Assembly: GCA_030529425.1 (NCBI GenBank)
Contig: JAUMWX010000004.1
Span: forward strand, 78,629 to 142,628
From: Tissierellia bacterium
GTDB lineage: Bacteria; Bacillota; Clostridia; Tissierellales; Peptoniphilaceae
DNA: 64,000 nucleotides
Direction of reading: 5' to 3'
The position numbers were made by a program, and so were the translations under genes. The notes under the pieces were generated by a model, which saw nothing but the letters and a program-made list of their open reading frames with translations, was not told where the DNA came from and made no database searches. Positions within the stretch are counted from its first letter, which is position 1. Each line of letters begins with the position of its first letter. Below are positions 1 through 12,802 of the stretch, in pieces.

Positions 1-1430
1 CCCAAGTGGAAAAAAGGGATTCCCTGACTGAACATCAAAATGGAAAATGCCATAACGGTCATGTCGGATATCTTGTCCTCGCTTACAAATGATTTAACCA
101 ATTTATCATAAAATATAAGATTATCGTGGGCATTAAAATAATTTATTGACTCCAATGGCGTATGAAAACTGCTATTGTTAAGCTTTTTATAATTCACTGA
201 TCCAAGTATTCCCTTAACAACATCATTTTTGTGATAATACTCTCCCTGTAAATATCCCCTTGTTCCTCCGTCATTATCTCCTTTCAGAGCATCTCTGAAA
301 AATGGATTGAAGATGGAAAAGTCCTTTCCTTTTTGAGATCCGATATTTATTTGTTTGTTATACTCCAACAAAGATCCCTGTGCCATCCAAGGTTCCCCAT
401 AAATCATAAAGTTTGGATTTATCTCCCTCAATTTTTTCTTTGCAAGCATTATGGTGTCGATATCAATTAATGCCATTAAATCAAATCTGAATCCGTCAAT
501 TTTGTACTCACTTGCCAAAAAGCATAAGGAATCAATTATAAATTTGCGTCCCATAGGCTTTTCAGATGCAAATTCATTTCCGCATCCGGATCCGTTATAA
601 AATGCCCCATTCACATTTCTATGATAATAATTCGGCATTATCTGGTTAAAATTCGAATCCAAAGTTCTGAAAGTATGATTATAAACTACATCCAATACAA
701 CCGATATTCCGTTTTCATGCATTGTTTGAACCATCTTCTTAAATTCATATATTCTTGCTTTAGGGTCAGAAGGATTTGTTGAAAAAGATCCCTCCATACA
801 ATTGTATAGCTCCTGGTCATAACCCCAATTGTAATTATTAGGATAAGAATGTAGCGGCTTGCTTTCATCAACAGTCAAATAATCCGTAAGAGGCATAAGA
901 TGTAAATGAGTTATTCCCAGATCTTTAATATGACCAATCCCCGTGGATAAACCCTTATAATTACTTTCCGACTCGGTCAATCCAAGGAAAGTTCCTCTAT
1001 TTTTTACTCCCGAATTTTCCAAGACAGTTACATCTCCCACATGAGCTTCAAGTATAATTGCTTTTTTATAGTCGTTATAGGGAATTTTATGTTCTAAAAA
1101 TCCTTCAGGATTCGTAGAATCCAAATCTATGATTGCAGACTTTAAGCTGTTTATTGAGCAAGCATACGAATATGGATCCGTAACAAGATTTCCATCTACC
1201 AGGTAACAATAAAACTTTCCGTCCAAATTCCCTTCAATCGTGTACTCATATACTCCGTTTTCATCCATTTGCATACTGTATTCTGTTCTCAGCAAGTCAT
1301 CATATTCCTCAAAAATACATAATGCAACCGCTTTCTGTAAAGGCGCCCAAACTCTAAATGTTGTGGATTCCTTTGAATAATTTACTCCCATTTTCTTATG
1401 GGAGTATTCCATTTCTTTCTTTAATTGCAT
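1..1430 (-). CDS. pulA: Type I pullulanase / glycogen debranching enzyme (GH13), partial. The N-terminus is present and the C-terminus runs off the window edge.
   Basis: Manual translation of the minus strand from an ATG near 1428-1430 with a GGAGA SD gives MQLKKEMEYSHKKMGVNYSKESTTFRVWAP. GH13 conserved regions are present: YNWGYD, GFRFDLM, GEPW and FNAHDN. It is the last gene downstream of glgP in the glg operon. It is absent from the ORF track because the ORF is open at the window edge. Confidence 0.8.
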   Translation of the reverse strand, partial: MQLKKEMEYSHKKMGVNYSKESTTFRVWAPLQKAVALCIFEEYDDLLRTEYSMQMDENGVYEYTIEGNLDGKFYCYLVDGNLVTDPYSYACSINSLKSAIIDLDSTNPEGFLEHKIPYNDYKKAIILEAHVGDVTVLENSGVKNRGTFLGLTESESNYKGLSTGIGHIKDLGITHLHLMPLTDYLTVDESKPLHSYPNNYNWGYDQELYNCMEGSFSTNPSDPKARIYEFKKMVQTMHENGISVVLDVVYNHTFRTLDSNFNQIMPNYYHRNVNGAFYNGSGCGNEFASEKPMGRKFIIDSLCFLASEYKIDGFRFDLMALIDIDTIMLAKKKLREINPNFMIYGEPWMAQGSLLEYNKQINIGSQKGKDFSIFNPFFRDALKGDNDGGTRGYLQGEYYHKNDVVKGILGSVNYKKLNNSSFHTPLESINYFNAHDNLIFYDKLVKSFVSEDKISDMTVMAFSILMFSQGIPFFHL

Positions 1431-1441
1431 CTAAATCTCCG

Positions 1442-3643
1442 TTAAAAGTAATTTTTGGTTGATGTTATACCACGAATAATATTATCCATGATTTCTTCAT
1501 TCCATTTTGATCTTTGATAATAATATTGGCAAATCCTTTCGCTCATCTCATAATGAGAAAATAAATCTCTTAAAACATTATGTGTATCGTTAAAATAAAA
1601 CAATGAATTATAAATTATGTTTACATCATAAGGAAAAAGTTCTTTTGGAAGATTTTTCAAATGGTTAAACATTTCATTTATTATCGGATGTTTTGTCAAA
1701 TAATCGTTTATATTGAAGATATAATCATCCCCTACACTCTCAAATATATATTTATTATTTATAATGTTTTTATGTTCTCTAACCAAGCTATTTTCTCCCG
1801 CCAAAATAATAGAACCGTTAATAATAAATCTAATCAGCGAAATATCAGTGTATTCCAAAGGTATATTTGAAACCTCTTCATAAACCTCCGTTGCGGGTAT
1901 AAGCAGATTCGACTTTGTCATATTGTAATTTTCTATAAATACAATTTTAATCTTGTTCTTTATGGTTAAATCATTATTAATCAATTTAGCTAATGCATTT
2001 ATAAACTTAATCATTTCTTTTGCCATATAATAGTTAGGATATGACTTTCCTCCGAAGAAGTATGTTCTTTCTGGTATATCCATATTCGCATTTTGTTTAA
2101 GCTTGTAATATAGCATCAAAATACTCAATGCTGACAAAAGTTGCCTTTTATATTCATGAAAAACACCGACTTTGGAAATAAAAATTGATTTTGGATTCAC
2201 AATTCCTTTTAAATCAAACTTTTCTATCAGGTTTTTCTTATTTTCAAATTTTATTTTGTCCAATAAATCTACATCTTTATTTTCAATGGCATTTACAAGT
2301 TTTTCATTTATTTCAGAAATATATTGTTTACCGTCAAATCCCAAAGTCACAACTTCGCACTTATCCATATAGTATGCATAATGATTTGGAAAATACTTAG
2401 TCCTAAGTATATCAATATGATCTCCCGATAAAAACTTTATCTTGCCGGATACATAATAAGCGATATTAAACAGATTGACCGATTCATTTCTAACAATTGT
2501 TAAGGTTTCTCTATTTATAAACTTTTCATCATTTAATTCCATTTTCAACTTTGCATCTATCAGTCTTATTGTATTAATTAATTGCGGACATACTTCACTT
2601 ATAAGATCCATACTCCAAACTTCAAAATTTTCAGGTAAAAATGATGTATTCATAAATATAAATACATTTCTTGCCAATTCAAACGAAGCTTCAAAACTCA
2701 ACTCATATTTTTCCATTAAAGCCTTGATAAAAACGACTATTGTCAGAGCCGGATGAATATCACAAATCTGTATTTTAACAGATTCAGAAAGCTTTGTTAT
2801 ATCATTATTCTTATATTTTTTATGTTTTTTCAGTATATCCTGAACACATGCCGAAGCAAAGAAATATTCTTGTGAAAGCCTCAATTTTCTACCGTTATGG
2901 GTGTCTTCTTTAGGGTAAAGAAATTCCACGATTGCATTTGCTTCATTTATCTCCTTATAAGCTTCCTGAATTCTTCCTTCAGAAAATTTCATAAAATCAA
3001 TGTCGTGAACAGATTCACTTTTCCACAAACGAAGTGTATTAACTCTCATTGAGTCTTTCCCTAAAATCGGAATATCATATGGAATCGCCTTAATTTTGTT
3101 ATTTTTAAAATCTACGAAATGAGAAAATTCTTTCTCATGTTCCCACGGATTATTATTCACTTTCCAATCATCAGGTTTTTCAACTTGACTTCCATTGATT
3201 ATTTCCTGCTTCAACATTCCTTTTCTATATCTTAATCCATAGGCATAAACATTTTGGTTGTTGTTAGCTAAATAATCCAAGCTGGCTCCGGTCAAAGTTC
3301 CCAAGTCTCCAAATCCTAAAGCAAACTCAAAATCATTTTTTTGAATATCTTCAAAACTTCTTCCATGTCTTTTTAAAACCGTTTTCACTTCATCAAGTAT
3401 CCCTAACTTGGCCGCATTGGTTAAAAGAATATTTCCCAATGAATATTCAAAACAAAGCAAATACAGAACACTTTCATCTCTTGATTTTTTCACAGTTTCA
3501 TTCCATATTTTACCGATTAACATTCTAATAGTTTTAGCAAGAGATGTGTAAATCTCACCATCTCTTGCTAAAGACATATCCTTGGCAAATGTTTCAAACA
3601 AATTTTCTTCTATTTTATCTTCCAAATAGAAATCTTCCCGCAT
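1442..3643 (-). CDS. glgP: GT35 alpha-glucan (glycogen/maltodextrin) phosphorylase homolog, divergent.
   Basis: 733 aa with GT35-like blocks KIVFIENY and NGSIILAGENSLV. It follows glgA in the standard glgB-glgC-glgD-glgA-glgP order. The canonical EASGTxNMKF and GLGNGGLGRLAAC motifs are not conserved (see findings). Confidence 0.75.
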   Translation of the reverse strand: MREDFYLEDKIEENLFETFAKDMSLARDGEIYTSLAKTIRMLIGKIWNETVKKSRDESVLYLLCFEYSLGNILLTNAAKLGILDEVKTVLKRHGRSFEDIQKNDFEFALGFGDLGTLTGASLDYLANNNQNVYAYGLRYRKGMLKQEIINGSQVEKPDDWKVNNNPWEHEKEFSHFVDFKNNKIKAIPYDIPILGKDSMRVNTLRLWKSESVHDIDFMKFSEGRIQEAYKEINEANAIVEFLYPKEDTHNGRKLRLSQEYFFASACVQDILKKHKKYKNNDITKLSESVKIQICDIHPALTIVVFIKALMEKYELSFEASFELARNVFIFMNTSFLPENFEVWSMDLISEVCPQLINTIRLIDAKLKMELNDEKFINRETLTIVRNESVNLFNIAYYVSGKIKFLSGDHIDILRTKYFPNHYAYYMDKCEVVTLGFDGKQYISEINEKLVNAIENKDVDLLDKIKFENKKNLIEKFDLKGIVNPKSIFISKVGVFHEYKRQLLSALSILMLYYKLKQNANMDIPERTYFFGGKSYPNYYMAKEMIKFINALAKLINNDLTIKNKIKIVFIENYNMTKSNLLIPATEVYEEVSNIPLEYTDISLIRFIINGSIILAGENSLVREHKNIINNKYIFESVGDDYIFNINDYLTKHPIINEMFNHLKNLPKELFPYDVNIIYNSLFYFNDTHNVLRDLFSHYEMSERICQYYYQRSKWNEEIMDNIIRGITSTKNYF

Positions 3644-5079
3644 TATAAACTCCTATATAATTCAATGTACTCCTTGGCAGATTTTCCCCAATCATTAATT
3701 TGAGACATCGAATTAGTGATTAATTTTGTAAATTTTTCTTTTTCATTGTAATACACATCAATCGCTTCTTTAGTTTTGAATAACAATTCATGCGCATTTA
3801 TATTGGCAAAGGTAAACCCCGTTCCTTCTCCGGTATATGTGTTAAAAGGAATCACTGTATCTTTAAGGCCGCCTGTTTCCCTTACAATCGGAATTGCACC
3901 GTATCTCATCGATATCAATTGTGAAATTCCGCACGGTTCCGCCACGGAAGGCATCATAAACAAATCACATCCTCCATAGATTAGATGAGATTCTTCATTA
4001 TTGAAGTAAATTCTTGATGCTACTTTATCAGGATATTTGTTTTGGAAATATTTAAACATTTCCTCGTACTCATAATCCCCCGTCCCAAGAAGGACAAATT
4101 GAATATCTTGCTGTATAAGTTCTTCAAAGATATATCTTACTATCTCCAAACCCTTCATCTCATTTAGCCTTGTAACCATAGCTATCATACAAACATCATC
4201 TCTCTGAGCTAAACCGAACCTTTTTTGAATTTCTCTCTTATTATATTTTCTGTCTTGATGAGAAATAATGTCGTAATTTTTTGCCAAAAACTTGTCGGTT
4301 TTCGGATCCCATTCGTCATAATCAATGCCGTTCACTATACCGAATAGTTTATGTGAATAATGATTTATTACACCTTCCAAGCCTTCACCGAAGAAAGGAT
4401 ATCTGATTTCTTCGGCATAAGTTTTTGAAACGGTATTGAACTTTGTAGAATGAACAATACCGCCTTTCATAAAGCTGATTGCATTTCTATACTCCAAGTC
4501 ATTGGCATTCATTAAATGGCCCGGTAATCCGGTCATTGAAAATACTTCTTTCCCAAACAATCCTTGATATTTCAAATTGTGTATGGTGAACAAGGTCTTT
4601 GTATCGGCATAAAAACTGTCTCCAATTTTAAAATCATTAAGATAAACAGAAACCAATCCTGAATGCCAATCATTTGAATGAATTACATCAGGTTTGAAAC
4701 CGATTCTCTTTGGAATTAGTACCGATGCTTTTGAAAAGAATATAAATCTTTCCGCATCGTCAAACTCTCCATAAATTTTTTCTCTTTTGAAATACTGTTC
4801 ATTGTCAATAAAATAAAATATTACGCCATCCAATTTCAGCTCGAACACCCCGCAATATCTATGCATCCAAGCTATATCAACATAAAACTCGTCGATTTTT
4901 TTCATCTTCTCTCTATATTTTTCATCAATAGCTGAATATAAAGGAAGTACAACTCTTACATCTTCACCTTGTTTTTTTAGCTCTTTTGGAAGTGAACCGG
5001 CAACATCAGCCAAACCGCCTGTCTTAATAAAAGGAACGGCTTCACTGGTAACGTATAAAATATTCATATTACCTCTCAA
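3643..5079 (-). CDS. glgA: Glycogen synthase (ADP-glucose type, GT5).
   Basis: 478 aa. N-terminal ILYVTSEAVPFIKTGGLADVAGSLPKEL matches the GlgA KTGGL motif. Operon context. Confidence 0.9.
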   Translation of the reverse strand: MRGNMNILYVTSEAVPFIKTGGLADVAGSLPKELKKQGEDVRVVLPLYSAIDEKYREKMKKIDEFYVDIAWMHRYCGVFELKLDGVIFYFIDNEQYFKREKIYGEFDDAERFIFFSKASVLIPKRIGFKPDVIHSNDWHSGLVSVYLNDFKIGDSFYADTKTLFTIHNLKYQGLFGKEVFSMTGLPGHLMNANDLEYRNAISFMKGGIVHSTKFNTVSKTYAEEIRYPFFGEGLEGVINHYSHKLFGIVNGIDYDEWDPKTDKFLAKNYDIISHQDRKYNKREIQKRFGLAQRDDVCMIAMVTRLNEMKGLEIVRYIFEELIQQDIQFVLLGTGDYEYEEMFKYFQNKYPDKVASRIYFNNEESHLIYGGCDLFMMPSVAEPCGISQLISMRYGAIPIVRETGGLKDTVIPFNTYTGEGTGFTFANINAHELLFKTKEAIDVYYNEKEKFTKLITNSMSQINDWGKSAKEYIELYRSL

Positions 5080-6187
5080 TCACCTTATTTTTTTCAACTA
5101 CATAAGGATTATTTTGTGTACCCTGAACAAATACTTTACTTTTAATTATTACGTTTTTATCCAATATTGAATTAACTACTATCGAATCTTCTTCTATTAC
5201 AGTATTTTCAAAAATAATTGAATTTTTTATAATAGAATTCTTTCCTACTTTTACCCCTCTGAATAAAATTGAATTTTCAACTTCACCTTCAATAATACAA
5301 CCATTTGCTATTATGGAATTCTTTGTTTGATTTCCCGGTAGGTACAATGTTGAAGGAGCATCCTTGGACTTAGTTAAAATTCCTCCTCCCGATACCAACA
5401 AATCATAATAAATTCCTATATTCAAAAGATTCATATTAGCCTTATAGAATGAAGGCAGATCCCTTATATACTCAACATGTCTGAACAGTTCCAAAGTTCC
5501 TATATTAAGAGAATCTTTTTGATTCATGATAGCTTCCGCCAATGTATAAGCATCTCCCTTTTCAACGCTCTCTTTGACAAGCTTAACGAATATTTCTTTT
5601 TTTATGAACAGATTTTCTATATACATGTTAAATATATCTTCTGTACCTAAATTTTTTCCAATATTTATTACTTTTCCATTTTCGTCAAAAATTATTTTTT
5701 TACAATTCAAATATTGACCTGAAACATCATCTTGTTTCCTGTAAAGAAACATAACATCATAATCATTTTCAAGAAAAATATTATATGCCTTAGTAATATT
5801 AATTCTTGACAAAAACATAGGATTTGCAACATAAACATCCTTTTGTTTTGATTCTTCAAAATATTTCAATGAATCATAGTATGTCGCAATTTCTGACAGT
5901 TTCGCTCCGTACTCATTTATGCCCATCGGATTAATCATCAATCCGTCGGTACGCTTATCCATCCCCCAACTTTTGCCGTTTCCAACATGATCAAGGGTTG
6001 ACCTGATATTTTTTCCCGCACACAAAAGTACCTTCGTAAGTCCGTGGAATGAAAGATTTGATAATGTAAAATCCACCAATCTATATCTCCCCGCAAAAGG
6101 AAGCATATAATCAGGTCTTGTTTTTAATAATGATTGAAAATCACTAAATTCAGTTGAAGAATTAATAATGCCTATTAATGTATTCAT
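5069..6187 (-). CDS. glgD: Glucose-1-phosphate adenylyltransferase regulatory subunit GlgD.
   Basis: 372 aa nucleotidyltransferase plus left-handed beta-helix fold. Lies between glgC and glgA as in Bacillus-type glg operons. Confidence 0.8.
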   Translation of the reverse strand: MNTLIGIINSSTEFSDFQSLLKTRPDYMLPFAGRYRLVDFTLSNLSFHGLTKVLLCAGKNIRSTLDHVGNGKSWGMDKRTDGLMINPMGINEYGAKLSEIATYYDSLKYFEESKQKDVYVANPMFLSRINITKAYNIFLENDYDVMFLYRKQDDVSGQYLNCKKIIFDENGKVINIGKNLGTEDIFNMYIENLFIKKEIFVKLVKESVEKGDAYTLAEAIMNQKDSLNIGTLELFRHVEYIRDLPSFYKANMNLLNIGIYYDLLVSGGGILTKSKDAPSTLYLPGNQTKNSIIANGCIIEGEVENSILFRGVKVGKNSIIKNSIIFENTVIEEDSIVVNSILDKNVIIKSKVFVQGTQNNPYVVEKNKVIER

Positions 6188-6195
6188 ATAGCCTC

Positions 6196-7335
6196 CTATT
6201 CAACATCTATTCCGTTTTCTGAAACAAGATACACATTTTCATCATTTTGTTTTCCGATAATTTTATTTTCTTCTATTACTTGGTTTTCGGAAACTACACA
6301 ATTATATATCTTTGCTCCCTTTTTAATTATTGCTCCCGGAAGAATAACTGATTTTTCAACCACGGCTCCTTCCTCGACAGTGACTTGGTCAAATAATACC
6401 GAGTTGGTAACCTTACCGGCAATATAACAAGCTTCATTGATTAAGGAATTTCCAACTATTCCGTCCGCGCTTATAAAATGAGGAGGCAGATTCTTTGGAG
6501 TAGTGTTAATTCTCCAAGTATTATCATATATGTTTAGAGGATTATCTCTGTCGATAAGATCGAGATTTGCCTCCCAATAAGATCTGACTGTACCAACGTC
6601 TTTCCAATACCCACTAAATCTGTAAACAACCATTTTTTGTTTAGAATTTAAAATTTTAGGAATAATGTTTTTACCAAAATCGTAATCTGAATTCTCGTCT
6701 TTATAATCTTCAATAAGTGACTTCTTAAGCGTATCCCAATTAAAAATATATATTCCCATTGACGCCAAATTACTTTTCGGATTTTCCGGCTTTTCTTCAA
6801 ATTCAACTATATTGTCCAGTTCATCAACATTCATAATCCCGAATCTTGACGCTTCTTCCCAAGGTACTTCCATAACCGCTATCGTAACCACTGCATTATT
6901 TTTTTTGTGAACGCTAAGCATTTCCTGATAATTCATTTTATATATATGATCTCCTGAAAGAATTAAAACATATTCAGGATCTAAATTTTCCAGATAATCA
7001 ATATTTTCATATATTGCGTTCGCAGTTCCTTTATACCATCTTCCACCTTCCTCTGAATAATATGGAGACAGTAATTTCAAACCGCCCTTTAATCTGTCAT
7101 AGTCCCATGCCTGTCCCAAACCTATGTGTTCATTAAGATAAAACGGTTTATATTGAGTTAGTATTCCGATATTGTCTATTCCTGAATTTGCGGCATTACT
7201 TATACCGAAATCTATAATCTTATATTTCCCTCCAAAAGGCACTGCCGGTTTAGCTGTATTTTTAGTCAACGCTTTTAATCTGCTTCCTTGTCCGCCTGCC
7301 AACAACATAGCTACCATTCCATTTTTTTGCACCAT
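6196..7335 (-). CDS. glgC: Glucose-1-phosphate adenylyltransferase (ADP-glucose pyrophosphorylase).
   Basis: 379 aa. [35 protein letters not shown] is the canonical GlgC N-terminus. Confidence 0.9.
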
Positions 7336-7344
7336 ACTCCCTCC

Positions 7345-9231
7345 TTATCTTTTATGACTCAATTTTACAAATATCGCCGCATATGGAGGTAAATCAACCC
7401 CCACTGAATATTCTCTTCCGTGATAAGGAATTTCTTCAGTATATAACGGTGTATTTCTATGAATTTCGCCACCATATTTTTTATGTGATGAATTTAGCAA
7501 AATTTTATAAATTCCTTTATTTTCAACTCCTATCCTATATTTAGGTCTGTAAACAGGAGTAAAATTAAATATACACATAATTTTATCGTTCTTACCGATT
7601 CTCTCAAAAATTATCACACTTTCATCATGATTTTGATGTTCCACCCACTCATATCCGTCATAAGAATCATCAAAGTCGGAAAATGCTCTTTCAGATGCAT
7701 ATATGTGATTCAAATCTCTTACAAAGTTTTGTAGATGAATATGATTGTCATAATTCAAAACGGACCAGGACAATTCTTTATCCTCGTTCCATTCTTCAAA
7801 AGTACCGATCTCCGATCCCATAAACATTAACTTTTTACCCGGATGTGCATATTGATAAGCATACAATGCTCTCAAGGATTTGAACTTAGTGTCATAATCT
7901 CCCTGCATCTTGTTAAGCATTGACCCCTTCAAATGTACTACTTCATCATGGGAAAACGGTAGAATATAATTTTCACTAAAACAGTAGGTAATCGAAAATG
8001 TTAATTTGTCTTGATGATATTTTCTGTAAAGAGGATCCATTTCCATGTATTTTAATGTATCGTTCATCCACCCCATATTCCATTTAAAGTCGAATCCCAA
8101 TCCACCTTTTTCCACAGGTAATGTCATATTCGGCCAAGCCGTACTTTCTTCAGCTATCATCATAACTTTAGGAAAATACTGATGAACTACATAATTCAGT
8201 TCCTTTAAGAAATCAATCGCTTCAAGGTTTTCGTATCCTCCATACATGTTGTATAGATTTTTACCGCCATAATTTAAATACAACATAGCGGCAACCGCAT
8301 CCACTCTTATTCCGTCAATATGATATTTTTTCAACCAGAACAATGCGGATGAAATCAGGAAATTCTTCACCTGTTGCTTTCCGTAATCAAAATATAAAGT
8401 TCCCCAACCGTCCGCAGAAGCTGCATACGGGTCAGTTTTTTCATACAGATAGGTCCCGTCAAACTCGATTAACCCGTGAGCATCCTTTGTAAAATGCACG
8501 GGAACCCAATCCAATATTACCCCTATCCCATAACTGTGAAATTTGTCAATCAAGGACATTAAGTCCTCCGGAGTTCCAAATCTTGATGTGGCTGCAAAAT
8601 ATCCTGTAACCTGATATCCCCATGATCCGTCAAATGGATGCTCTGTCAGCGGCATAAATTCAACATGTGTAAATCCAAGCTTTTTCACATAATCAGGAAG
8701 TCTTTCCTCAAGTTCTTTGTAGCTGTAATATCTTCCATCCGGATGTCTCATCCATGACCCCGCATGTAATTCATATATTGACATCGGTTCATGTATATGA
8801 TCCTTTTTATCCAAATCCTTTATGTATTTTTTATCTTTCCACTTATATCCGTTCAAATCATATATTTTGCTGGCTGTTTTAGGTCTGGTTTCGGAATGAA
8901 AAGCGTATGGATCCGCCTTATAAAGTACCCAATTTTGATGAGTTACTATTCTGTATTTGTATGTATCGAATTCCTTTGCATTTTCAATACAAACATTCCA
9001 AATTCCTGAACCGTTGACATTTTTTAGAGGTATATTTCCCTCGTTCCAAGAATTAAAATCTCCAACTAAATATACTTCTCTTGCGTTTGGTGCCCAAACA
9101 CAAAAGCTTGTCAAATTTTTTCTCTCAATTTTAATCTTATGAGCTCCTAAGAACTCATAAGATTCATAATTTTTACCTTCATTATATAGATATACCGACT
9201 CATCCAAATCAGTTCTATAAAATAATTTCAT
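7345..9231 (-). CDS. glgB: 1,4-alpha-glucan branching enzyme (GH13, CBM48).
   Basis: 628 aa. GH13 regions DWVPVHF, GIRVDAVAAM, EESTAWP and FSHDEV. First glg gene of the operon. Confidence 0.9.
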   Translation of the reverse strand: MKLFYRTDLDESVYLYNEGKNYESYEFLGAHKIKIERKNLTSFCVWAPNAREVYLVGDFNSWNEGNIPLKNVNGSGIWNVCIENAKEFDTYKYRIVTHQNWVLYKADPYAFHSETRPKTASKIYDLNGYKWKDKKYIKDLDKKDHIHEPMSIYELHAGSWMRHPDGRYYSYKELEERLPDYVKKLGFTHVEFMPLTEHPFDGSWGYQVTGYFAATSRFGTPEDLMSLIDKFHSYGIGVILDWVPVHFTKDAHGLIEFDGTYLYEKTDPYAASADGWGTLYFDYGKQQVKNFLISSALFWLKKYHIDGIRVDAVAAMLYLNYGGKNLYNMYGGYENLEAIDFLKELNYVVHQYFPKVMMIAEESTAWPNMTLPVEKGGLGFDFKWNMGWMNDTLKYMEMDPLYRKYHQDKLTFSITYCFSENYILPFSHDEVVHLKGSMLNKMQGDYDTKFKSLRALYAYQYAHPGKKLMFMGSEIGTFEEWNEDKELSWSVLNYDNHIHLQNFVRDLNHIYASERAFSDFDDSYDGYEWVEHQNHDESVIIFERIGKNDKIMCIFNFTPVYRPKYRIGVENKGIYKILLNSSHKKYGGEIHRNTPLYTEEIPYHGREYSVGVDLPPYAAIFVKLSHKR

Positions 9232-9243
9232 TACAGTTTTCCT

Positions 9244-10890
9244 CTATTCTTCATCTATTTTTGCAATTGCCGCAGTCACGGTAGGAATGAATTGTTTTTT
9301 TCTTGACAACAGATTATTAACCAAAAATCCTTTTTCGTTATATTCAACGCCAAACTCTTTAGCTATTGCATCTCCATACTTGCCCACAACTATAACTTTA
9401 CTCTTTTGTGCAAATATATCCGTCATAAGTAGGCAAAATATATCGTCCGAATTAAGATTTCTCATCTCATTCATCTTTTGGATTATTTTTTCTTCCATAG
9501 TTCCCAATTGATCCAAATTGGTCGTAAATGTCTGAGAAACTTTAACCTTGTTTCCTTCAATATTGAAAACCTTAGAATCCGTCAATAATATATCTTCCGG
9601 CTTTTGATCTTTCAATGATGTCCCTGCCGAAAACATCTCTACCGCATATTCTTCAGCATTAATATCTGCAATTCTCGCAAGTCTCATCAATACCTGTTTA
9701 TCAGTTTCCGTTGTAGTTGGTGATCTGAACAACAGAGTATCGGAAATTATTGCAGATGCCAACAGTCCCGCTATATTTTTACTAGGAGTCACCCCCTCTT
9801 CAAAATACATCATAGCAATTATTGTACAAGTGGAGCCCACCGGGATGTTTCTAAAGTAGATTGGCGCATTTGTCATAATATTCGCCACCCTGTGGTGATC
9901 TATTATCTCAATAATTTCTACACTTTCAAAGTCGTCTATGGATTGATTTCTCTCATTGTGATCAACCAATATTAGCTTCTTTTTTTTGTCGAATAACAAA
10001 TCATTTCTTGAAAGATTTCCAACAACTTTTCCTGTTCTGTCAAGCACAGGAAAGTTTCTGAATCTCTTGTTTTTAATTCTCTTTTCGACATCTTCAAGAT
10101 AGTCATCAGGATAAAAGAAAGTAAGATCCTCCGTACTCATCACATAAGATATAGGTATGGCTTGAGGAAGTAAACGCGCCACCATGTAAGAATTATACTT
10201 TGTTGATAAAACAACTATATTTTTAGCCTTTGCAAGCTCTAAAATTTCATCTTCCATTTTAGCACCGCTTGACAGAATTATCATACTTATATCTCTGTCA
10301 ATCGCTTCGATGTGAACCTCACTTCTATTTCCTACAATCAATATATCTCCTTTACTTAGATGCCCCTTTTCATCTACGCTTGAAGCATATACAACGATTC
10401 TGCCGTCATAGTCCTTTACTTCATTCGGATAATAAATAACATTTCCGGAAATAACATCAATTATATTATCAATTGAAGTGTTAGCTCTCCAAATAATCTT
10501 GTCATCCCAAACTTCCATATATGACTTTGTCAGGTTTGAAAGTGTTACGATCCCTATCAGTTTTTGATTGTCATCAATTACAGGTAAGGAACGCATGTCT
10601 TGATCTTGTAAAAATTTAGCAGCCTTATTAATCGATATGTCAGGACTTACACAAAACGGAACATCCAAATCAAGATCCTTGATTCTTTGCTTTAATGTTC
10701 CGACAAATATTGGGGCTTCAAATCCCCATCTGTTTAAGACCCATTTTGTTTCCGGTCCCAATTCTCCAATTCTTATTGGAATAGCTTCAACATCTCCTCT
10801 TTTGTTTTTTAGTTCAGCATATGCTATAGCAGAACAAATTGAATCCGTGTCCGGGTTTTTATGCCCGGTAATATATATTTTCTCCTTCAT
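9244..10890 (-). CDS. CBS-domain-containing family II (DHH/DHHA2) manganese-dependent inorganic pyrophosphatase.
   Basis: N-terminus KIYITGHKNPDTDSICSAIAYA is a family II PPase signature. Central CBS pair and DRTGG-like insert. DHH motifs LVDHNE and IIDHHRV. Start placed at M13 (MKEKIY) with a GGAAGG SD. Ends 12 bp from the glgB start. Confidence 0.8.
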   Translation of the reverse strand: MKEKIYITGHKNPDTDSICSAIAYAELKNKRGDVEAIPIRIGELGPETKWVLNRWGFEAPIFVGTLKQRIKDLDLDVPFCVSPDISINKAAKFLQDQDMRSLPVIDDNQKLIGIVTLSNLTKSYMEVWDDKIIWRANTSIDNIIDVISGNVIYYPNEVKDYDGRIVVYASSVDEKGHLSKGDILIVGNRSEVHIEAIDRDISMIILSSGAKMEDEILELAKAKNIVVLSTKYNSYMVARLLPQAIPISYVMSTEDLTFFYPDDYLEDVEKRIKNKRFRNFPVLDRTGKVVGNLSRNDLLFDKKKKLILVDHNERNQSIDDFESVEIIEIIDHHRVANIMTNAPIYFRNIPVGSTCTIIAMMYFEEGVTPSKNIAGLLASAIISDTLLFRSPTTTETDKQVLMRLARIADINAEEYAVEMFSAGTSLKDQKPEDILLTDSKVFNIEGNKVKVSQTFTTNLDQLGTMEEKIIQKMNEMRNLNSDDIFCLLMTDIFAQKSKVIVVGKYGDAIAKEFGVEYNEKGFLVNNLLSRKKQFIPTVTAAIAKIDEE

Positions 10891-10965
10891 AATCCTTCCT
10901 TTCTTTTCTTGATTTAATAATAACATATATCTAAAAAACTTTAAATTATACCCCGTATAAAAGTA

Positions 10966-11299: not shown

Positions 11300-12802
11300 T
11301 TATTCTTCAAATTTGTGACTTATATTATAATTTTCAGTCGGATAATACACTTCAGCCGAATCTACGAATTTCTTCAGATCCTTCAATACTCTAGGAGATG
11401 TGGACATGCATCCAGGACCGTTTACGCAACCCCCCGGACAAGCCATTCCTTCAAGAAGATATCCTTTGTATTTTCCGGCTTTTGCTACCTTCATCATCTT
11501 CATACATTCAGATAAAGCATCTGCGTGCATGATATTTATTTCTCTTGTAGGATCCAGTTTTTCCGCAGTTGCTTTTACCGCTCCCGCAACACCTGTAGCA
11601 ACCGCATAATTTCTTCCCAGTGAAGAAGAAAACTTGAAATCAGATTTAACTTCCATTTCACTAGGCTCAATTTGCTTAGCTTGGAACATTCCGGACAACT
11701 CTTCGTAAGTAATTACATAATCAATTACGCCTTTAAGATCTTCTCTCATCGCCTCAAGTTTTTTCGAAATACATGGCCCTATAAATGTTATTTTAGCTTC
11801 AGGCGCCAATTCCTTAATATACTTGGCAGTATACACCATTGGAGATGCAGAATCTGAAATATATTTAAATTCGGTCGGAAAATTCTTTTCAACCATCAAC
11901 CACCATGAATTACAACATGATGTCGCCATGTACGGAATTTCTTCAGGAACTCTGTGAAGATATTCTTTCGCCTCGTTTATAGTAGTAATATCAGCCCCCA
12001 AACTAACCTCAACAACATTTTTAAATCCAAGTTTCTTGATTGCTTCAATTATTTGTAAAGGAGTAGCTAAAGCTCCGAATTGTCCCACAAATGACGGTGC
12101 AATAATCGCATAATTAGGCTCTCCGTCGGCGATGGACTTGGATACCTGATAAATCTGCCCCTTATCAGCAATAGCTCCAAATGGACATTCAGTCATACAT
12201 CTACCACAGGAAACACATTTGTCTTCAATTATTTTAGCTCGTCCAAGATCATCGCTGGTAATAGCATTAACACCGCATACACTTGAACAAGGTCTGTCAT
12301 ACATTACAACGGCACTATATGGGCAGGCATCTTTACATCTTCCGCATTTAATGCATTTTTCCTTGTCAATATATGCTCTGTCTTTTTTTAATGTAATCGC
12401 ATTAACGGGACATACATTTACGCAAGGATGAGCCAGGCATTTCCTGCAATTGTCGGTCACATAGTAACTCTTTGTCGGACAAGCCGCGCACGCAAACGGA
12501 ATTACATTCACAAGAGGAAGCTCGAAATGAACCTCTTTCATATTATAATTTTCCATTCCGTCAGTTATTAATGAGAATTCTCCCGGTCTTCTTAAATTAA
12601 GACCCATGCTCATTCTAATTCTTTCTTCCAAAATAGCTCTTTCTTTAAAGATGCTGTCCCTATATGTTGCTACTTCCCCCGGAAGTATATCATATGACAT
12701 ATGTACTAAATCTTTTATATCCCTATTTTCAAAAGCATGCTTTGCAACCTCTGAAAACACTCTTCTTCGAAGATAAATTAAATCTGTATACGTCTCTTTC
12801 AT
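11300..12802 (-). CDS. [FeFe]-hydrogenase-like protein: N-terminal unknown domain, two 4Fe-4S ferredoxin motifs and a short H-cluster domain.
   Basis: CIKCGRCKDACP and CVSCGRCMTECP are ferredoxin motifs. The H-cluster motifs are variants: L1 TSCCNSW (canonical TSCCPxW), L2 GPCISKKLE (MPCxxKxxE) and L3 EGMACPGGCVNGPGC (ExMACxxGCxxGGGQP). Confidence 0.65.
   Translation of the reverse strand: MKETYTDLIYLRRRVFSEVAKHAFENRDIKDLVHMSYDILPGEVATYRDSIFKERAILEERIRMSMGLNLRRPGEFSLITDGMENYNMKEVHFELPLVNVIPFACAACPTKSYYVTDNCRKCLAHPCVNVCPVNAITLKKDRAYIDKEKCIKCGRCKDACPYSAVVMYDRPCSSVCGVNAITSDDLGRAKIIEDKCVSCGRCMTECPFGAIADKGQIYQVSKSIADGEPNYAIIAPSFVGQFGALATPLQIIEAIKKLGFKNVVEVSLGADITTINEAKEYLHRVPEEIPYMATSCCNSWWLMVEKNFPTEFKYISDSASPMVYTAKYIKELAPEAKITFIGPCISKKLEAMREDLKGVIDYVITYEELSGMFQAKQIEPSEMEVKSDFKFSSSLGRNYAVATGVAGAVKATAEKLDPTREINIMHADALSECMKMMKVAKAGKYKGYLLEGMACPGGCVNGPGCMSTSPRVLKDLKKFVDSAEVYYPTENYNISHKFEE

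Follow-up and report, generated by a model that had tools for sequence, protein, structure and literature searches.

We analysed a 64-kb stretch of DNA (64,000 nucleotides, called the window below; GC content ~32%) from contig JAUMWX010000004.1 of a Tissierellia bacterium metagenome-assembled genome (MAG). Near one end it carries a glycogen operon whose last-but-two gene, here named glgP*, encodes a degenerate member of glycosyltransferase family GT35 that resembles glycogen phosphorylase (GP). The protein, GlgP*, is identical to MDO4778830.1, deposited under a 'Tissierellia bacterium' MAG. A preliminary description of the gene had proposed that GlgP* lacks the lysine to which GT35 enzymes attach their cofactor, pyridoxal 5'-phosphate (PLP). 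The locus is laid out as follows.

1442..3643, (-) strand: glgP*, degenerate GT35 (glycogen phosphorylase-like), an open reading frame (ORF) of 733 codons
3641..3662, (-) strand: glgA/glgP* junction, where the glgA stop shares TAATG with the glgP* start and AGGAG lies 6 nt upstream
3643..5079, (-) strand: glgA, glycogen synthase (GT5), from the Pfam domains of orthologues
5069..6187, (-) strand: glgD, non-catalytic ADP-glucose pyrophosphorylase subunit (TIGR02092, 296 bits; cutoff 236.6)
6196..7335, (-) strand: glgC, ADP-glucose pyrophosphorylase, from orthologue domains
7345..9231, (-) strand: glgB, branching enzyme, from orthologue domains
9244..10926, (-) strand: CBS-domain Mn-dependent inorganic pyrophosphatase (PPase), first gene of the conserved cluster (NF011443, 607 bits; cutoff 335)
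1..1430, (-) strand: type I pullulanase gene (pulA/amy), 5' 476 codons of a frame that stays open past the window edge, 99.1% collinear with locus L002

The genes are tightly packed in the order PPase, glgB, glgC, glgD, glgA, glgP*, pulA. In L002, a 99.1%-identical contig from another sample, pulA is followed by pgm (phosphoglucomutase), and the full-length pullulanase (CBM48+GH13) scores 609 bits against TIGR02104 (cutoff 504.5). Positions 1-1441 hold no listed ORF and no Rfam match and were considered as non-coding DNA; this was ruled out, as they are the 5' part of pulA leaving the window. The TAATG overlap and its AGGAG read as translational coupling of glgP* to glgA, and the same 1-nt overlap is present in Helcococcus kunzii and H. 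ovis. The arrangement is like the glgBCDAP-amy-pgm layout described for Lactobacillus acidophilus (PMC4282360).

Fold and catalytic residues of GlgP*

GlgP* belongs to GT35 by its match to PF00343 (E-value 9e-127; 424.6 bits against a cutoff of 27). The curated phosphorylase model TIGR02093 aligns over residues 7-723 with 464.5 bits, under its cutoff of 552.9, and the GP1-like model TIGR02094 gives 37.5 bits against a cutoff of 191.7, which places GlgP* outside the short GP1 proteins. The AlphaFold2 model has a mean predicted local distance difference test (pLDDT) score of 86.8 and a predicted template-modelling (pTM) score of 0.87. It adopts the two-domain GT-B fold, with Foldseek template-modelling scores of 0.91 to 2c4m and 0.88-0.93 to ~50 solved phosphorylases. 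Dips in pLDDT in this model coincide with the former active-site loops.

The register of the catalytic motifs is the same by every route taken. Pairwise phmmer alignments to the solved proteins 2c4m and 9v16 set 'eytdislirf' opposite 'easgtsnmkf' and 'gfgdlgtltga' opposite 'gngglgrlaac', and MAFFT alignment with 78 canonical homologues returned a register identical to that of HMMER for both motifs. When GlgP* is aligned to Escherichia coli MalP (query 62-615 to chain 63-655), R605 falls on K646, the PLP lysine of MalP (Chem Rev 2024 review, PMC11046441). Four segments carry the changes.

1829..1855, (-) strand: EYTDISLIR, residues 597-605, opposite the PLP motif EASGTGNMK; translation-verified, with R605 (1829-1831) in the Schiff-base lysine column
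3296..3319, (-) strand: LGFGDLGT, residues 109-116, opposite the glycine-rich phosphate loop LGNGGLGR; translation-verified, with clade-conserved N133→F and G135→D
2141..2173, (-) strand: KVGVFHEYKRQ, residues 491-501, opposite IKRIHEYKRQ; the phosphate ligands K568 and R569 become G493 and V494, and Y573, K574 and R575 are kept
2321..2359, (-) strand: CEVVTLGFDGKQY, residues 429-441, opposite FNNKTNGITPRRW; N484→Leu, the RR pair gone, W491→Tyr

The four peptides on which the preliminary description was built (KIVFIENY, NGSIILAGENSLV, EYTDISLIRF and ALGFGDLGTLTGA) are all in the translation. HMMER, MAFFT and the MalP coordinates concur with its placing of EYTDISLIRF at the EASGTGNMKF motif, with Arg in the PLP lysine column of the window protein, and the glycine-rich loop is degenerate, as it had said. 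Its statement that the EASGT residues are lost holds for S674, G675 and T676 and fails for E672, which survives in the window allele. A lysine within a PLP-like motif elsewhere in the C-terminal domain, which the description had named as the finding that would speak against it, does not appear in the profile alignment, and regular expressions for relaxed versions of the motif (E..G[TS]...K and similar) found none elsewhere in the whole GlgP* protein. There is likewise no new clade-conserved lysine near the PLP site; the lysines conserved in the C-terminal domain of the clade occupy canonical lysine columns; the single exception, position 562, is not close to the motif. Residue loss is also wider than had been described, taking in K568, R569, N484, W491, N133, R138 and S674-N678.

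To gauge the extent of the loss we scored 20 catalytic or cofactor positions that vary little or not at all among the 78 canonical sequences. They are numbered as in rabbit-muscle GP, with a constant offset of +34 to MalP K534, K540 and K646. Canonical representatives hold 18-20 of the 20, and GlgP* retains seven (G134, H377, Y573, K574, R575, Y648 and E672). The 13 losses comprise N133→F, G135→D, R138→T, N484→L, W491→Y, K568→G and R569→V together with the PLP motif, where S674, G675, T676, G677 and N678 are replaced by T, D, I, S and L, and K680 by R. At the ligands of the PLP 5'-phosphate and the substrate phosphate GlgP* now has G493, V494, K499, I601, S602, G112 and D113, so that only K574 and G134 are kept; roles of the K568- and K574-equivalent lysines are taken from PMC11046441. 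The set of residues that binds the glucosyl unit at subsite -1 is incomplete, with H297, Y498 and E597 kept in the window allele and N484→L, S674→T and G675→D lost.

Neither motif is found in any of the 42 protein clusters closest to GlgP* (P0001-P0042), and nearly every match from P0043 on has both. Members of this degenerate clade come from H. kunzii, H. ovis, Peptoniphilaceae bacterium SGI.131 and Tissierellia MAGs, and an intact ORF of 714-779 residues is found in ~40 clusters at 45-58% identity. Substitutions recur at the same positions. N133→F/Y and G135→D/E are each found in 39/39 sequences, N484→I/L/F/V/M in 37/39, T676→I/L/F/Y/V in 35/39 and R569→V/I in 34/39; N678 becomes L, I or V, K568 becomes G, and GGKAAPGY is changed to GGKSYPNYY in essentially all members. 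Altogether 15 positions that are invariant in canonical enzymes carry a different, conserved residue in the clade, among them N133→F, G135→D/E, W491→Y, an Ala replaced by Y535 and a Gly replaced by N537. E672, S674 and G675 are variable (G in 13, E in eight, N in eight and Q in six sequences at E672). This pattern suggests that the polar pocket for cofactor and phosphate has been filled and its charge compensated, and Asp113 may form a salt bridge with Arg/Lys605. Codon 605 itself is polymorphic among alleles that are all >98% identical: it encodes Arg in the window and in P0267, and Lys in P0266, P0268 and P0269, the alleles coming from metagenome samples SRR33674912, SRR14741498 and SRR33696108. 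Such conservative toggling between Lys and Arg fits selection for charge and not for a Schiff base.

Selection, origin and the canonical paralogue

glgP* is functional and under strong purifying selection. The ratio of non-synonymous to synonymous polymorphism (pN/pS, or omega) is 0.04-0.10 in pairwise comparisons of four alleles (window, L002, L004 and L005); in one example pair, 33 synonymous differences stand against 11 non-synonymous ones (binomial P versus neutrality ~1e-15). The degenerate state recurs in independent assemblies (L002, L004 and L005), so that neither chance nor misassembly accounts for it. Key catalytic residues are missing from a protein retained under purifying selection, as would be expected of a pseudoenzyme. 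glgP* is also the fastest-evolving gene of its cluster, with 50% identity between the MAG and H. ovis or H. kunzii, as compared with 57-76% for the other cluster genes (59-74% for operon neighbours in H. ovis) and 73% between the canonical paralogue and that of H. ovis. Constraint is relaxed specifically at the catalytic segments, which rank highest for conservation in canonical enzymes and lowest in the clade.

Residues 571-630: clade 0.40-0.57, canonical 0.91
Residues 391-450: clade 0.49, canonical 0.82
Residues 121-270: clade 0.72-0.81, canonical 0.79-0.88; N-terminal core including LYPxD...LRLxQEYF, towards the glucan groove
Residues 481-570: clade 0.75-0.83, canonical 0.78-0.84; HEYKRQ...GGKSYPNYY...KIVFIENY

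Within the last of these regions, residues 511-570 around GGKSYPNYY equal or exceed the conservation of canonical enzymes.

In neighbour-joining (NJ) trees on Kimura distances (50 bootstraps), P0001-39 and P0001-42 are each monophyletic in 50/50 replicates, on a long stem. Their sister group consists of canonical 807-residue proteins, one of which, P0056, is encoded at the equivalent position of its operon (glgB-C-D-A-glgP-GH13). This makes the degenerate clade orthologous to the operon glgP. Canonical operon GlgPs of Bacillota (GP2 proteins of the glgBCDAP operons of Bacillus subtilis and L. acidophilus, and P0056) share with GlgP* their fold, length class and position between glgA and a GH13 debranching gene, and GlgP* keeps their N-terminal domain blocks, HEYKRQ helix and ENY strand. 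They differ in holding all 20 scored positions, against 7/20 in GlgP*, and in their C-terminal FSSDRTI..YA..IW. This segment (FSSDRTIxEYAxxIW; ~1442-1480, (-) strand) is missing or truncated in the clade, its canonical-invariant columns being gapped or variable there, and GlgP* has 733 residues against ~790.

When 1.84 billion representatives were searched exhaustively with a profile, three from the clade scored above 1000 bits. Below them stands a graded set of degenerate GT35s with at most 12/20 positions, amounting to ~20 clusters (50% identity) among the best matches. Most of these join the clade in the NJ tree, a placement to be read with long-branch attraction in mind. The graded series with 4-11 of the 20 positions comprises P0040, P0042, P0121-P0130, P0164, P0170, P0185, P0191 and P0195; P0182 and P0183, with 12/20, look like an independent case. 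The intermediates P0040 and P0042 keep E672, G675, T676 and K680, residues of the PLP motif, but not K568, R569 and G135, which suggests that loss was stepwise and that the substrate-phosphate site was the first to go.

Catalysis in these genomes probably falls to a second gene. The preliminary description had advised looking for a canonical GT35 elsewhere in the genome; none lies within the window (tblastn), and one very probably lies in the same MAG. This protein, P0053 (MDO4778147.1, 'MAG: Tissierellia bacterium'), has 791 residues, all 20 positions and 1049.9 bits against TIGR02093. We place it in the source assembly because its accession is 683 away from that of the window protein, the GC contents of the two contigs match (0.336 and 0.324) and its context, cdd-GT35-fba-rho, is that seen in relatives. 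The pairing is direct in H. ovis, whose chromosome (CP119761.1) carries the canonical gene at 341-344 kb in cdd-GT35-fba-rho and the degenerate copy at ~938-940 kb in the glg operon, and in Peptoniphilaceae SGI.131, which has degenerate P0003 and a canonical 793-residue GT35, again in cdd-GT35-fba-rho. Canonical GT35s are present in H. bovis and H. sueciensis as well, H. bovis and a Peptoniphilaceae MAG giving the top two matches in a contig scan with P0053. The cdd-GT35-fba-rho block spans 3295-8465 of L001 (very probably the source MAG), 4428-9751 of L089 (H. ovis) and 3052-8299 of L091 (SGI.131). By gene order the catalytic phosphorylase is associated with a gene of glycolysis rather than with the operon for glycogen synthesis.

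The position of glgP* in the operon is conserved across five lineages. The full context PPase-glgBCDA-P*-GH13-pgm is kept in H. kunzii, H. ovis and the locus of P0037 (L008), the locus of P0042 has glgBCDA-P*-GH13-pgm without the PPase, and the glgA-P*-pulA(-pgm) part is seen in the near-identical alleles L002, L004 and L005. Three observations on the neighbouring genes may be added. The PPase, a family II enzyme with CBS and DRTGG domains, lies directly upstream of glgB here, as it does in H. kunzii, H. ovis and the P0037 locus; its position suggests that pyrophosphate removal and the GlgC reaction are coupled, perhaps under nucleotide-sensing control through the CBS domains. The GH13 genes downstream of intermediate P0042 (L006, 11400-13289) and of deep-branching P0037 (L008, 11291-12991) give weak Pfam alpha-amylase matches and have no CBM48, and the debranching partner of glgP* may be diverging too in some lineages. 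Upstream of the PPase-glg cluster, 11300-12802 on the (-) strand encodes a 500-residue multi-4Fe-4S protein like [FeFe]-hydrogenase, and a similar 500-residue Fer4/Fe_hyd_lg_C gene holds the same position at the P0037 locus (L008).

Function of GlgP*

GlgP* is likely to be a pseudo-phosphorylase, non-catalytic and probably still able to bind glucan. This reading is favoured because 13 of the 20 catalytic positions are gone, constraint is relaxed in the catalytic segments, the lysine varies between Lys and Arg and the genomes also encode a canonical paralogue. The gene would derive from the glycogen operon's own glgP. Its product would have kept the two-domain GT35 fold and the N-terminal-domain side of the glucan cleft. 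It would have lost the PLP pocket and the sites for the cofactor phosphate and the substrate phosphate, with bulky hydrophobic side chains and a conserved Asp partly taking their place. Without both phosphate sites and the PLP pocket, phosphorolysis by GlgP* should be impossible, whether PLP takes part, as in the classical mechanism, or two phosphates act without it, as proposed for the Methanococcus enzyme discussed below, and would fall to the separate canonical GT35 between cdd and fba-rho. The operon copy, presumably co-translated with GlgA, would be retained by purifying selection for a non-catalytic function.

What that function might be is indicated by the regions still under constraint. 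Glucan binds mainly on the N-terminal-domain side of the phosphorylase cleft (PMC11046441), and because this side is still constrained in GlgP*, retained binding of alpha-1,4-glucan is the most economical guess. GlgP* could then act as a chain-end-binding subunit or as a regulator of glycogen synthesis and trimming. Candidate roles are a cap or decoy for chain ends, a scaffold for GlgA, GlgB or PulA, and a heterodimer partner of the canonical enzyme. Residue losses, fold, selection pattern, operon conservation and the co-occurring paralogue are observed; from them we infer the lack of catalysis, the glucan binding and the regulatory role.

Several points weigh against a pseudo-phosphorylase. 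H377, K574, R575, Y648 and, in most members, Y573 are retained across the clade, and the old active site may still bind some ligand or have residual activity. The lysine column reads K33/R4/E2, and since 33/39 members retain Lys although the remainder of the site has been lost, Lys→Arg is not the defining feature of GlgP*. Calls of 'dead' proteins from sequence have been wrong before in GT35, as an active PLP-free GP exists, and the inactivity of GlgP* and of all clade members is a prediction of this kind. Its specific role as cap, scaffold or heterodimer partner is conjecture. The same-assembly origin of P0053 rests on accession adjacency and not on a contig record. Finally, a canonical GT35 of H. 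kunzii is not among the best 120 matches; its Fba is likewise missing from the Fba matches, so that the non-detection is uninformative, H. kunzii being simply more divergent.

Degenerate paralogues with a retained purpose are known in glycogen and starch metabolism. GlgD, the dead paralogue of GlgC in this operon, would be the closest parallel for the role proposed here. GlgD and GlgC form hetero-oligomers, and ISA2 and BAM4/BAM9 are non-catalytic paralogues of starch metabolism. Like GlgP*, GlgD is an operon-encoded, selected and degenerate paralogue of a pathway enzyme that evolves faster than its catalytic relative (59% identity for GlgD and 74% for GlgC; 50% for GlgP* and 73% for canonical GT35). 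Unlike GlgP*, it belongs to another fold and family and has its partner GlgC encoded next to it, whereas a partner of GlgP* is only conjectured. The plant proteins, including the Pho1 scaffold (PMC13545646) and PHS1-DPE1 (PMC13342499), are alpha-glucan enzymes or dead paralogues that act by binding or complex formation. They offer an analogy only, being eukaryotic and plastidial, and Pho1 itself is still a PLP enzyme. A bolder form of the proposal, which we put forward tentatively, is that GlgP* and the wider set of degenerate operon GlgPs make up an undescribed non-catalytic class of GT35, binding chain ends or dimerising with the canonical enzyme and so balancing synthesis and degradation. 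In its most radical variant, the Asp or Glu at the former phosphate site may serve a new, cofactor-free chemistry.

A related alternative is that GlgP* has been neofunctionalised into another catalyst or a small-molecule sensor, for instance a cofactor-free glucan hydrolase or transglycosylase acting through D/E113, or an allosteric receptor for sugar phosphates acting through K574/R575. The 15 positions with new conserved residues point to new constraint and not only to decay, and the region around GGKSYPNYY, at least as conserved as in canonical enzymes, is in keeping with this. However, there is a single new conserved acidic residue, its obvious partner E672 is variable, and the loops that a new site would need (571-630) are poorly conserved. 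To our knowledge no GT35 enzyme uses such hydrolase or transglycosylase chemistry. We regard neofunctionalisation as unlikely.

It is more doubtful still that GlgP* remains an alpha-glucan phosphorylase that works without PLP, with free orthophosphate or another anion in place of the cofactor phosphate. The preliminary description had held covalently bound PLP to be a requirement of every characterised GT35 enzyme, a view now outdated. In the GP of Methanococcus maripaludis (MmGP), Thr replaces the lysine and four methods detect no PLP, and the enzyme is fully active; a second orthophosphate is proposed to take the place of the PLP phosphate in its conserved site (bioRxiv 10.1101/2024.09.29.615707). 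In other enzymes of the short GP1 subfamily, according to a 2026 paper, T, G or A stands in for the Lys and GGLGXL is conserved (PMC13324651); Lys-less GP1 enzymes are found in Akkermansia, Flavobacteria and others. Because MmGP is active without it, loss of the lysine alone is no evidence of inactivity, and the argument rests on both phosphate sites. Retention of H377, K574, R575, Y648 and the HEYKRQ helix, and purifying selection on a gene whose glycogen operon closes with pgm, the consumer of glucose-1-phosphate, are also what a working phosphorylase would show.

GlgP* resembles MmGP in the missing Schiff-base lysine and in bulky pocket residues (F26 in MmGP; F111, Y441 and Y535 in GlgP*, by alignment). 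MmGP is a short, monomeric GP1 protein of ~550 residues in which only the lysine is changed, whereas GlgP* is of the GP2 type and coexists with a canonical paralogue. The combination seen in MmGP-type enzymes, a replaced lysine with GGLGXL, EASGTXM and both phosphate sites conserved, is absent from GlgP*: MmGP keeps these motifs and its substrate-phosphate, maltopentaose and PLP-phosphate sites, and GlgP* has lost both motifs along with K568, R569, N484, T676 and G677. The MmGP mechanism would therefore be unavailable to GlgP*, a GP2-type protein without those sites. The G135 backbone faces the phosphates in GP structures, and the Asp now at this position would repel phosphate. Moreover, constraint on GlgP* is lowest in the catalytic segments, and the genomes concerned also encode a canonical GT35. 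The alternatives offered in the preliminary description, a pseudo-enzyme or scaffold on one side and a non-canonical enzyme on the other, thus part company: the former is well supported, and a non-canonical phosphorylase is disfavoured by the loss of both phosphate sites.

That glgP* is a decaying pseudogene, or an artefact of assembly or annotation, might be suggested by its place as the fastest-evolving operon gene and its score below the NCBIfam phosphorylase cutoff, but is refuted by selection and replication: the ORF is intact in ~40 clusters and, in the window, within a genome of 32% GC, omega is 0.04-0.10, the AlphaFold2 fold is confident, the same sequence occurs in four independent assemblies, and synteny and translational coupling are conserved.

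Glycogen metabolism and the GT35 family

GT35 has been treated as a monofunctional and strictly conserved family, and annotation pipelines label GlgP* 'glycogen/starch/alpha-glucan phosphorylase'. Metabolic models that adopt this name for Helcococcus, Peptoniphilaceae and their Tissierellia relatives from the gut and from animals will credit phosphorolysis to the wrong gene. Surprise at a degenerate GT35 is lowered by the recent Lys-less GPs and by the commonness of pseudoenzymes; the case of GlgP* is itself undescribed, conserved and operon-embedded, within a known family. In the literature we found no description of a GT35 or glycogen phosphorylase pseudoenzyme. With H. kunzii and H. ovis there are cultured hosts with complete genomes in which the question is directly testable.

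The clade also marks a boundary for PLP-free phosphorylases, in that loss of the lysine alone is compatible with activity and loss of both phosphate sites probably is not. Should GlgP* prove to be a pseudoenzyme, it would have no recorded predecessor in GT35 as far as we have found, and would be the second dead paralogue, after GlgD, in the glg operon of Bacillota, which would point to non-catalytic control of glycogen structure and turnover. If GlgP* belongs to a class of regulators, this would solve, for these lineages, the long-standing puzzle of why synthase and phosphorylase are made from one operon, since catalysis would have moved to a separately regulated gene.

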